Source of the DNA: a virus
Taxonomy: Duplodnaviria > Heunggongvirae > Uroviricota > Caudoviricetes
Length of the DNA: 64,000 nt
IMG/VR virus record: IMGVR_UViG_3300033463_000077
Reading direction: 5' to 3' (one strand)
The notes under the pieces were generated by a model. The model was not told the origin of the DNA. It searched no databases and worked only from the letters and a program-made list of their open reading frames with translations. Both the position numbers and the translations under genes were made by a program. Shown one piece after another: positions 19,400-21,116 of this stretch (positions are counted from its first letter, which is position 1; every line of letters begins with the position of its first letter).

Positions 19400-19460
19400 A
19401 AATCTTATAAATAATTTTTTTGAATTGAAGTAATAGAATCAAAGTTGGTTGGAGCAAAGT

Positions 19461-19607
19461 CATGATATTTGTATTGAAAATCTTTTTAGCATATATAGGA
19501 ATCTCGATCTTTCTTAATATAGTTTTATTTTTCCCTTTAATATTGCAACGAATTAAAGACTCCATCGCAGAAGAAAAGAAAAGAAAGGAAGAATGGAGAA
19601 AGTGGTA
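19461..19607 (+). CDS. small hydrophobic protein (48 aa), plus strand inside minus arm
   Basis: hand-found ORF MIFVLKIFLAYIGISIFLNIVLFFPLILQR..., RBS GGAG; no motif promoter. Confidence 0.3.
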
Positions 19608-19615
19608 ATCCTTAC

Positions 19616-20647
19616 TTATTTCATAAATGTAGAATAGAAAGTTAAAAAGTCTGATATTTTTGATCTCATCCTTTCCTTTCCTTCTATAGTGTTTAATGTA
19701 TTCCACTGAATTCTATAAACTTTATATCCTAATGAGGTTAAAACTTGATCACGTTCTACATCACTTTCTACACGTGCTTGATCGGTCCAATGTTGTTTAC
19801 CATCTATCTCTAAATCAATAATACCATTTGGAGTTTTAATAACAAAATCAAGAAAATACTTTGTCACTTTCTTTTCTCTAGTATATACAATATGATTAAA
19901 ATTCAAAACTTTAATAAAAAACCTTTCAGCATAACTTGTAATATTTCTTGACATCCATGGTTTTATTTTTCCTTCTGCCATTAATTTTTTTGAATTTTCA
20001 GAAAGTTTCTTTCTAGTTTTTTCTGAACAAACCTTCTTTCCATTTTGATCAAATATTTGAAAAGCTTTATATCCTAACTTATCAGAACATTCATAACAAT
20101 ATTGAGCTTCTGCTGCTTTTACGTAGATCTCTTTTCCACATTCTTTACAATTTATTTTATGAAGACCAATATTTTCACTTTTATATCCTTTCTTTGTATG
20201 GCATTCTTTACATAATACATTATTTGATGTTGATCTTGAATTAAATTCTTTTCCACATTCTTTACAATAATGAGTCCAAATTTTTGATTTTAATGTCTGA
20301 CTAACTTTTTCTTTTGATTCTTTTGAATGAATGTGACCTTTTGCACATTTATTAGAGCAAGTCTTTCTATAATTAGAATTATTATAGTCTCTTATTCTAA
20401 GATCCAAATTATATTCTTTTCCACATTTATTGCAAATTAAAGTATATGTTTTAATTTGATTTAATGGATCATTTTTAGTTCTTTCAGCTTTAGCTTTCTT
20501 AAAAGCTTCTACTCCAAATTTTGAAACTTTTTCTACATGAACTTTAATGTTTGATTCGTAATCTGGGTTTAATTTACAAAAACGTTCGTGGGCTGATTTT
20601 GAACCTTTAGACCTGCATTCTTTATGACAATATTGACAGATAAACAT
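19616..20647 (-). CDS. multi-zinc-finger protein with C-terminal DUF559/Vsr-like (PD-(D/E)xK-type) endonuclease domain; homing-endonuclease-like
   Basis: repeated Cx2C...Hx3-5C modules; C-term IDLEIDGKQHW...RDQVLTSLGYKVYRIQWN resembles DUF559; very AT-rich, no motif promoter. Confidence 0.6.
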   Translation of the reverse strand: MFICQYCHKECRSKGSKSAHERFCKLNPDYESNIKVHVEKVSKFGVEAFKKAKAERTKNDPLNQIKTYTLICNKCGKEYNLDLRIRDYNNSNYRKTCSNKCAKGHIHSKESKEKVSQTLKSKIWTHYCKECGKEFNSRSTSNNVLCKECHTKKGYKSENIGLHKINCKECGKEIYVKAAEAQYCYECSDKLGYKAFQIFDQNGKKVCSEKTRKKLSENSKKLMAEGKIKPWMSRNITSYAERFFIKVLNFNHIVYTREKKVTKYFLDFVIKTPNGIIDLEIDGKQHWTDQARVESDVERDQVLTSLGYKVYRIQWNTLNTIEGKERMRSKISDFLTFYSTFMK

Positions 20648-20856
20648 TTTTACTCTTCCTTTTATTTTTCGCTATTTATATTTATTCAATTAAATAAAAA
20701 ACCGATCATTTCTTTCAAATATTTTGCGAAAAATAAAAGGAAGAAAAATGATCGGTTAAAAATTGGTCTGAGTGAGAGTACTCGAAACTCCATGATTATC
20801 CAAACCCCAAATTTGGTGCCATTCCTCTTTGGCCACACTCAGATATTTACTTAAAA

Positions 20857-20933
20857 TGGCTCCAGCAGCAGGACTCGAACCTGCGACCAAGTGGTTAACA
20901 GCCACCTACTCGTACCGACTGAGCTATGCTGGA
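20857..20933 (-). tRNA. tRNA-Asn (anticodon GTT)
   Basis: manual cloverleaf: acceptor UCCAGCA/UGCUGGA, D GCUC/GAGU, anticodon stem GGUGG/CCACU, loop CUGUUAA, T GCAGG-UUCGAGU-CCUGC, CCA encoded. Confidence 0.8.
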
Positions 20934-21116
20934 ATAAATTTGGTTATTAGTTGATGAGCTCTTTCAACTTTATCGAGAACCAACCCCGGGTATCTAACGT
21001 GGATTCTTTCTATGGAGAGGAATCACATCTCCTACTTTCCAAATCAGTCACCTTCGAACCTTACCGTCGGTTAAAAGGCCAAAGGAAGCACCTCCAAGAT
21101 TCCTGTCTTCCTGTAT

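Follow-up and report, generated by a model that had tools for sequence, protein, structure and literature searches.

Positions 19400-21116 of a 64,000-nucleotide stretch of DNA from a phage of the Caudoviricetes (IMG/VR record IMGVR_UViG_3300033463_000077; the whole stretch is referred to here as the window) hold two tRNA genes followed on the same (minus) strand by an open reading frame (ORF) of 343 amino acids (aa). The ORF was found at 19616-20647, as initially annotated, with an ATG start and an AAGGAAG ribosome-binding site (RBS) 7 nt upstream. With a probability of roughly 0.8, it encodes a free-standing Vsr-like (EDxHD/DUF559) homing endonuclease in a tRNA operon of an uncultured large phage. 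Because the block is bounded by copies of a promoter motif at 21127-21155 and 19370-19398, both on the minus strand, 19400-21116 is a single transcription unit composed of promoter, 193-nt leader, tRNA-Asn, tRNA-Pro and endonuclease gene. The features of the locus are listed below, L085 being a related contig described further on.

21127-21155, minus strand: promoter-like site TTTACA-16 nt-TATAAT, a degenerate copy (6 mismatches) of the window-wide motif
20934-21126, minus strand: untranslated leader, 193 nt, GC-rich, between promoter and tRNA-Asn; 97.9% identical in L085
20857-20933, minus strand: tRNA-Asn(GUU), called by ARAGORN and by the Rfam tRNA model (64.3 bits)
20764-20842, minus strand: tRNA-Pro(UGG) with an 8-nt variable loop and encoded CCA, a regular ARAGORN cloverleaf
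20694-20757, minus strand: hairpin and U-run, with a 12-bp perfect stem (arms 20746-20757 and 20700-20711) and a 34-nt loop
20654-20744, minus strand: helix between an anti-Shine-Dalgarno (anti-SD) arm at 20719-20744 and the Shine-Dalgarno (SD)/RBS arm at 20654-20679
19616-20647, minus strand: probable homing endonuclease gene, 343 aa, with its RBS AAGGAAG at 20655-20661
19973-20647, minus strand: N-terminal region, aa 1-225, with four zinc modules (one CCHC, three CCCC) and, at aa 104-120, a weak NUMOD3-like stretch
19619-19972, minus strand: C-terminal Vsr-like/DUF559 nuclease domain, aa 226-343, from Pfam, profile and fold matches
19609-20736 (limits +/- 7 nt), no strand: segment of approximately 1.13 kb missing from L085, from blastn and junction alignment
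19462-19608, plus strand: convergent small ORF of 48 aa with one predicted membrane helix, outside the element, its stop codon at the right-hand junction
19370-19398, minus strand: promoter-motif copy with 0 mismatches, serving the downstream gene at 18968-19348 and marking the end of the unit

The identity of the C-terminal domain was evident from Pfam matches, a profile search and a structural model. Thus, aa 248-318 matched both PF18741 (REase_MTES_1575; 40.7 bits, cut-off 38.2) and PF04480 (DUF559; 39.5 bits, cut-off 20.6), in agreement with the Vsr/DUF559-like segment that had been proposed from the sequence, and precomputed Pfam assignments placed PF04480 in nearly all listed homologues and PF18741 too in most. 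No GIY-YIG family appeared among Pfam matches at E <= 1 and no Pfam match to Vsr was obtained, the likeness to Vsr being seen at the fold level only (E ~0.1). A profile built from 25 homologues matched 3hrl, a DUF559 structure, with an E value of 1.2e-3 and an alignment of approximately 60 residues that included the LDF and E-x-DG-x-QH motifs; it also matched 3r3p (I-Bth0305I) over the whole domain with an E value of 5.5e-3. The best Protein Data Bank (PDB) matches of the AlphaFold2 model (mean pLDDT 85.3) in a Foldseek search were 3r3p_A and 3r3p_B (E values of 5.5e-4 and 8.5e-4; target-normalised TM scores of 0.75-0.79), followed at lower ranks by Vsr (1cw0 and 1vsr, ranks 17 and 22), archaeal Holliday-junction resolvases and other PD-(D/E)xK folds. 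Thus, a nuclease fold, for which a check had been suggested at the outset, was indicated by each of these comparisons.

Among the 25 homologues, D267, D282, H286, D296 and D300 were invariant and E280 was present in most. In the profile alignment, D267 fell on D196 of I-Bth0305I, E280 on the Glu of I-E-V and D296 on the Asp of NKD, while H286 was one position off H213. The roles of the catalytic residues of I-Bth0305I have been described, D196 and H213 being the two residues mutated in the 3r3p crystal (PMC3239194). From these alignments, the protein is predicted to carry the composite catalytic set of EDxHD type, i.e., a Glu, a Mg-binding Asp, a general-base His and a neighbouring Asp.

Four zinc-binding sets of residues (C4/C7/H20/C24, C72/C75/C97/C101, C128/C131/C146/C149 and C167/C170/C184/C187) were located in the N-terminal region, where Cx2C/Hx3C modules had been claimed initially, and beta-hairpin pairs occurred at every module in the AlphaFold model. 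Most of the corresponding Cys and His were invariant or nearly so among the 25 homologues; the third set was missing in some, as would be expected of modular DNA-binding units. The region is presumed to be the DNA-binding, target-recognition part of the protein. The NUMOD3 match at aa 104-120 (E 0.082; 13.3 bits as opposed to the cut-off of 20.4) and all zinc-ribbon and C2H2 Pfam matches in the 343-aa protein were below threshold, and a separate search with the N-terminal 226 aa for the same modules on other nucleases returned only close relatives. A match to a PHROG HNH-endonuclease family was noted at aa 112-216 (E 6e-4).

Vsr-like EDxHD enzymes are the sixth family of homing endonucleases, with I-Bth0305I as prototype and free-standing members of the Hef type (PMC3239194; PMC6083498). 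The present protein shares with I-Bth0305I, which was both its best structural match and a profile match, the C-terminal Vsr-like nuclease, the conserved Mg-binding Asp, Glu and general-base His, the order of an N-terminal DNA-binding region and a C-terminal nuclease, and its occurrence in a phage; like the Hef proteins of T4-related phages (PMC3239194), it is free-standing. Unlike I-Bth0305I, its gene lies outside any intron or intein, in a tRNA operon rather than in a gene of DNA metabolism. Sequence similarity to 3r3p is weak (approximately 20% identity) and Pfam assigns the protein to DUF559/MTES_1575, for which both thresholds were passed. DUF559 proteins are typically either short and bacterial or equipped with N-terminal domains of another kind; to our knowledge, only this phage subfamily has an N-terminus of four zinc modules and a place in tRNA arrays. 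Escherichia coli Vsr (1vsr, 1cw0) has the same core fold but is a mismatch-specific nickase and not a mobile gene, and the protein described here gave no match to Vsr in Pfam, has a different N-terminus and is not linked to a Dcm methylase. Thus, the protein is a Vsr-like nuclease joined to an N-terminal array of zinc modules, i.e., it has the bipartite EDxHD layout with different DNA-binding modules.

The ratio of nonsynonymous to synonymous substitution rates (dN/dS) was 0.136 in comparison with the 85% identical copy of locus L002 (0.115 for the N-terminal part and 0.17 for the nuclease) and 0.26 for L004 compared with L088. These low ratios indicate purifying selection and hence that the gene has been kept functional.

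A relative without the gene was found among metagenome sequences. A megablast search of 17000-24000 against GenBank phages gave no match, indicating that there is no close cultured relative, and an exact tRNA-Pro pattern scan of IMG/VR likewise gave no match. The sole match of a scan for a 28-nt exact piece of the window tRNA-Pro was metagenome contig Ga0265298_10124978 (L085; 2541 nt), and a second tRNA-Pro pattern scan, with a pattern from L032/L015, added nothing new, its matches being two known contigs and one truncated locus. L085 retains the promoter, the leader, tRNA-Asn and tRNA-Pro in order, without the endonuclease gene. In blastn alignments, L085:1314-2020 corresponded to 21456-20729 of the window (89.2% identity) and L085:2016-2256 to 19601-19350 (76.5% identity), with no gene between them. 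The left junction lies after window position 20737; the right one, at approximately 19609, is immediately beyond the end of the small plus-strand ORF and its stop codon. What is missing is the distal half of the leader structure that precedes the start codon, the RBS, the complete ORF and a few further bases. Thus, the check for presence or absence in relatives proposed in the initial annotation gave a contig that matches both flanks and is missing the gene, and the mobile segment so defined is narrower than the island of 19400-21116 that had been delimited there.

Since L085 has none, the gene is dispensable and polymorphic among phages with nearly identical flanks; the gene-lacking state between conserved flanks was seen in this one allele only. 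Of the hairpin, L085 retains the 5' arm, and of the anti-SD arm the first 9 nt. Because such retained arms make sense only together with the gene, L085 is likelier to be a deletion derivative than a never-occupied site, and the more probable course, as judged from its sequence, is that it lost the gene by deletion. The peptide of the small ORF at 19462-19608, a hydrophobic helix followed by a tail rich in Lys, Glu and Arg, is conserved in L085 and L002; in L085 this ORF is without a stop codon and its frame runs on antisense to tRNA-Pro.

The structure interrupted in L085 consists of two interleaved inverted repeats between tRNA-Pro and the ATG, which were detected by a repeat search. The 11-bp repeat reported initially proved to be real and to extend to 12 perfectly paired nucleotides (20700-20711/20746-20757), while a second, longer repeat of 26 nt (20654-20679/20719-20744; 88% complementary) had been overlooked. 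The anti-SD arm of the second repeat sits in the loop of the hairpin formed by the first. The minimum-energy fold of 20630-20765 (-31.5 kcal/mol) was the anti-SD:SD helix, which extends over the AUG, and none of 200 shuffled sequences was as stable (z = -4.3). The same helix was obtained with RNAalifold from the window, L004, L088, L002 and L090, with compensatory changes in 7 of its 19 pairs. The stem of the hairpin covaries as well (AACCGATC/GATCGGTT, AAGCTTGATC/GATCAAGCTT and AACGATTGAG/CTCAATCGTT), with compensatory changes in L002 and L090. Thus, the conserved helix is predicted to bury the RBS and start codon of the gene, whereas the hairpin with its U-run looks like a terminator or processing site after tRNA-Pro. 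A terminator scan did not call the hairpin at 20694-20757, because its loop exceeds 8 nt. Short spacers without the anti-SD structure were seen in L086 and L087.

Phage T4 restrains several of its homing endonucleases by ending transcripts and by poor translation of read-through RNA; in T4 genes of this kind, I-TevI among them, a hairpin that sequesters the RBS limits production of the potentially toxic nuclease from read-through transcripts. As in the I-TevI type of hairpin, the helix described here covers the SD sequence and AUG in read-through from upstream genes; unlike in that type, the anti-SD arm forms part of the loop of a terminator-like hairpin, which immediately follows a tRNA gene. 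An TATAAATA-like motif lies between the helix arms; a late-promoter function for it would be speculation.

Upstream in the same unit, the promoter-like site at 21127-21155 was the best sigma-70-like match within 19200-21400 in a promoter scan (11/12) and probably starts the leader/tRNA/endonuclease unit. An internal sigma-70-like site at 20408-20436 was given no weight because promoter-like matches in the region numbered 12 as opposed to 10.9 in shuffled sequence. The 193-nt leader contained no credible ORF and had no Rfam match, and its predicted fold was not more stable than that of shuffled sequence (z = 0.49). The leader was also considered as a known RNA or a decayed tRNA, of which the only sign was a poor tRNA-like call at relaxed thresholds of 70-80%. 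The direct upstream neighbour of the endonuclease gene is tRNA-Pro, at a distance of approximately 115 nt, and not tRNA-Asn, which had been taken initially for the abutting gene and is the next one out according to ARAGORN. This tRNA-Pro, although a regular cloverleaf in ARAGORN, was not reported in a scan with the Rfam tRNA model; it is nearly identical in L004, L088 and L085 except for the anticodon stem.

The position next to tRNA-Pro(UGG) is a property of the protein family. At least 143 relatives, many of them full length and of the same layout, were found in a metagenome protein collection, among them truncated forms (e.g., P0010, 227 aa, N-terminal region only). A combined pattern and tblastn scan of IMG/VR gave 79 loci, many on contigs of 100-430 kb, all of which were scanned with ARAGORN. 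The nearest tRNA was within 250 nt of the ORF, and always on the same strand, in 78/84 loci. Of the 1057 tRNAs in 72 non-identical loci only 76 (7.2%) were tRNA-Pro(UGG), yet tRNA-Pro(UGG) was the direct neighbour of the gene in 45 of these loci (upstream in 35, downstream in 11 and on both sides in one). It flanked 45/63 inter-tRNA gaps that held the gene as opposed to 16/181 other inter-tRNA gaps of 500-2500 nt in the same loci (odds ratio 26; Fisher p = 4e-21).

In the closest set (the window, L002, L004/L005, L086, L087, L088, L089 and L090; 46-85% identity), tRNA-Pro(UGG) was just upstream of the gene in 8/8 cases, while the tRNA further upstream varied (Asn, Ser, Tyr or Pro(AGG)), as did the downstream neighbour (tRNA-Met, Thr, Ser, Gly or a protein gene). 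Homologues were also present in Prevotella phage Lak-A2, between tRNA-His and tRNA-Pro(UGG), and in Rhizobium phage RHph_TM61, between tRNA-Ile and tRNA-Met, the latter being annotated as a homing endonuclease. A search of the literature, of incomplete coverage, for DUF559 or EDxHD proteins in connection with tRNA found no Vsr-like family tied to tRNA arrays or tRNA-Pro; thus, the preference of a Vsr-like family for one tRNA type, as it appears from these loci, looks new.

Two possible marks of nuclease action on tRNA-Pro were considered and rejected. Fragments of tRNA-Pro as traces of a cut site occurred as scattered cases only, with no common break point, and a long variable region did not distinguish copies adjacent to the gene, since long forms were also found in non-adjacent copies. 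A variable region longer than is usual for tRNA-Pro brings many phage tRNA-Pro(UGG) genes to a length of 85-98 nt; such forms were present in L006, L007, L025, L026, L031, L036, L043, L046, L086 and L089, beside the gene and away from it.

The tRNA genes next to the indel have diverged more than the DNA around them. In a comparison of one allele pair (window 20764-20933 and L085 1815-1983), tRNA-Asn was 80.5% and tRNA-Pro 91.1% identical, whereas the promoter was 96.6%, the leader 97.9% and both the Asn-Pro spacer and the 27 nt after tRNA-Pro 100% identical. The excess of differences over adjoining non-coding DNA was significant for tRNA-Asn (p = 4e-7) and for both tRNAs together (p = 1.5e-6). 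Twelve of the 15 differences in tRNA-Asn form six compensatory stem pairs, with the anticodon, T and variable loops unchanged, and the differences in tRNA-Pro are two compensatory anticodon-stem pairs, position 38 and two variable-loop bases. The DNA site may have escaped the nuclease through changes that preserved tRNA function, break repair may have introduced patches of a third allele by gene conversion, or the tRNAs as such may have been under pressure from the host.

What we infer from sequence and model comparisons, namely DNA cleavage, the target position, double-strand-break repair as the route of transfer and a regulatory role of the RNA structure, can be put together as follows. The four zinc-binding modules would read a long DNA site, which the C-terminal PD-(D/E)xK-derived nuclease would cut. 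In a co-infecting relative without the gene, the DNA would be cut in or near the tRNA-Pro/tRNA-Asn region, and repair copied from the gene-bearing genome would bring in the gene together with some flanking tRNA sequence (intron-less homing). The hairpin and U-run after tRNA-Pro would end most transcripts, and read-through RNA would be poorly translated with the anti-SD arm paired to the RBS and start codon.

The gene thus occupies a niche known for T4 SegB. SegB, a GIY-YIG endonuclease, is reported to cleave within tRNA genes, as a result of which its tRNA region is preferentially inherited (PMC2330249); it amplifies tRNA-Tyr in escape from Septu and is linked to tRNA genes across phages, without isotype preference (PMC13096335). 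Both are free-standing nuclease genes among phage tRNAs with a statistical link to tRNA across many phages, and the mechanism proposed here, as for SegB, is cleavage within or close to the tRNA genes of a co-infecting relative and co-conversion of the nuclease gene with neighbouring tRNAs. The GIY-YIG and Vsr-like folds are not homologous, so that only the genomic setting is alike, and in contrast with SegB the present family is strongly tied to tRNA-Pro(UGG). HNH endonucleases also accompany tRNA arrays, in mycobacteriophages and cyanobacteria.

A more specific possibility, which we hold only tentatively and think more doubtful than probable, is that in large phages the tRNA-Pro(UGG) gene, or the DNA directly beside it, is the specific homing target of this lineage. 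The nuclease would then be a main force that moves, duplicates and diversifies tRNAs of the arrays, including compensatory stem changes that would destroy the nuclease site while the tRNA stays functional, and may have been co-opted, like SegB, against tRNA-targeting defences. The excess divergence of tRNA-Asn and tRNA-Pro between the two alleles, mostly in paired stem changes, is a hint in this direction.

Several results weigh against homing as the explanation of this locus. The probable deletion in L085, as read from its junctions, would be more likely to show loss of the gene and gives no direct proof of invasion, and one gene-lacking allele is not enough to derive a target site. The order Asn-Pro-gene-small ORF is common to the window, L002 and, minus the gene, L085; L002 has an extra tRNA-Met between the gene and the small ORF, its tRNA-Pro, visible in the alignment, has a long variable arm and was missed by ARAGORN, and its wider flanks differ from those of the window. 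Since this local order is shared, the locus appears to have been inherited in place among the closest relatives, and movement between positions was seen only at greater divergence. The link to tRNA-Pro(UGG) was found in only 17 of 34 clusters formed at 60% identity and could in part derive from shared ancestry of the array order. In addition, the N-terminus consists of four zinc modules (zinc ribbons) as opposed to the two NUMOD2/HTH repeats of I-Bth0305I.

Three other accounts of the gene were considered beside homing. In one, the nuclease is domesticated and its cuts in or near tRNA genes promote recombination, duplication and amplification of tRNAs, replacing those destroyed by host defence. 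SegB is a precedent in its use of tRNA-Tyr against Septu (PMC13096335), and the purifying selection on the gene, two copies of tRNA-Pro(UGG) around or beside it in L015, L019, L027, L030, L034 and L039, a perfect 23-nt partial duplicate of tRNA-Pro in L086, the high divergence of gene-adjacent tRNAs within DNA that is otherwise approximately 98% identical and the presence in the window of Rnl1-like and Rnl2-like RNA ligases and a phosphoesterase, a tRNA-repair set against anticodon nucleases, would all agree with such a role. No tandem amplification of tRNA was seen in the window, however, tRNA fragments near the gene were not systematic, and L085, a close relative with the same tRNAs, has no gene. 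We therefore regard domestication as unlikely, and as something that would add to homing without replacing it.

The setting in a tRNA operon would also be explained by a protein that acts on RNA, i.e., a Vsr/RAP-like factor that would bind or cut RNA in the maturation of the tRNA precursor or of tRNA-Pro itself. For FASTKD4, a Vsr-like protein, a role in RNA processing has been described (PMC11879112). The gene is on the same strand as the tRNAs and almost always inside arrays, a second gene of L086 gave a weak RAP match (PF08373), and Foldseek also listed Toxoplasma mitoribosomal proteins (9i05_Xr and 9g6k; E ~0.03), which we take to be RAP-domain proteins. The best sequence and fold matches, however, were to DNA endonucleases (DUF559, MTES_1575 and I-Bth0305I), L085 has both tRNAs alone and so marks the gene as dispensable, most phage tRNA arrays have no such gene, and an RBS-sequestering helix is typical of toxic homing endonucleases and not of an abundant processing factor, all of which makes a role in RNA processing quite improbable. 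That the gene is a remnant, decaying or already inactive, and no more than an AT-rich accessory gene placed beside tRNAs by chance, is hardly credible. Truncated relatives such as P0010 and the loss of the gene in L085 would fit it, but the ORF is untruncated and retains every conserved catalytic and zinc-binding residue, dN/dS is 0.14, the RNA helix has been kept by compensatory changes and the linkage to tRNA-Pro is far beyond chance.

A selfish nuclease gene in a phage is by itself expected. For the Vsr-like homing endonuclease favoured here, a pair of alleles with and without the gene is defined by sequence in an uncultured large phage of rumen type, which makes the target site directly testable in vitro. 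Related contigs bear the sample labels STEW19 and TONG22; the former, which presumably refers to a rumen metagenome study, is the reason for the term rumen-type. The family is widespread in large phages, including Lak megaphages, and tied to one tRNA isotype, a tie not known from SegB or from HNH endonucleases in tRNA regions and one that suggests how particular tRNA genes spread between phages. An array of zinc modules on a small Vsr-like nuclease is also a compact modular design, of interest for genome engineering if its specificity is long and programmable.

The low GC content and the lack of a promoter motif that had been cited initially in favour of a selfish insertion were of limited value. 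Approximately 95 copies of the motif TTTACTTTTTGA-N6-ATGTTATATTA occur in the 64-kb window as opposed to 0-5 in shuffled sequence. The motif spans approximately 29 nt (a TTTACT -35-like element, 16 nt and TGT-TATATT) and recurs roughly once per 650 bp; copies include 15609-15637, 18293-18321, 47992-48020 and 62931-62959, and nearly every small gene is preceded by one. Up to approximately 25.2 kb the copies are on the minus strand (with a few more to approximately 28.1 kb) and beyond that almost all are on the plus strand, indicating that the two halves of the window are transcribed divergently. No copy was found between 19398 and 21127, as claimed, but this follows trivially from the position of the unit between two copies. 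Other motif-free gaps of 1.3-2.9 kb occur in the window wherever an ORF is long and, since such gaps accompany any long ORF, a motif-free stretch is no evidence of foreign origin.

The claim of AT-richness held for the ORF (26.6% GC) and for the indel defined by L085 (26.2%, in the lowest 1.3% of windows of the same size), compared with 34-40% in the flanks and a mean of 36.1% for the window. It failed for 20764-21116, where the tRNAs and part of the leader reach 45%, and 49.0-50.3 kb is more AT-rich than the endonuclease segment. Thus, of the initial interpretation as a homing or selfish insertion, the nuclease fold and the gene-lacking relative remain as support, whereas the limits of the island, the missed tRNA-Pro and the arguments from composition and promoter motifs were its weaker parts.

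The motif is common to related contigs while the genes between its copies are shuffled, which resembles the promoter-cassette gene shuffling of T4-type phages. Stop-codon reassignment in the window was considered and rejected, as no single reassignment clearly gained long ORFs; the many short ORFs are better explained as small genes, each with its own promoter. In relatives, the standard bacterial code does not yield the recorded protein at L086 430-1464 and L087 326-1444, and the homologue in L092 (Lak-A2), at 2400-3432, is broken into pieces; these patterns are consistent with stop-codon reassignment in those phages.

Other observations concern L086 and the remainder of the window. In L086, the 23-nt duplicate, a perfect match to the 5' part of tRNA-Pro, occupies 235-257; it is separated by 30 nt from the intact gene downstream, which in turn is followed by the endonuclease gene, and may be a recombination scar. 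The second L086 gene, at 2266-3276 on the minus strand in the tRNA array, encodes 336 aa with faint C2H2 zinc-finger and weak PF08373 RAP matches, and its product may be another, diverged nuclease of the same general kind. Genes for nucleic-acid repair in the window are located at 56874-58106, 29777-30901, 46101-47990, 40842-41795 and 36971-37870 and comprise a T4 Rnl1-like RNA ligase, an Rnl2-like RNA ligase, an NAD-dependent DNA ligase, a PolX-like polymerase and a calcineurin-like phosphoesterase; only 1.3 kb separates the Rnl1 gene of L004 from the endonuclease gene. Elsewhere in the window, ARAGORN called a tRNA with a four-base anticodon (caga) at 35597-35670 that was absent from the Rfam calls, and Rfam called a tRNA at 38525-38607 (45 bits) that was absent from the ARAGORN calls. 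A local GC peak of 55-59% at 22950-23450 contains long ORFs on both strands, among them a minus-strand ORF at 23010-23444 with a tail rich in Ala, Lys and Arg.

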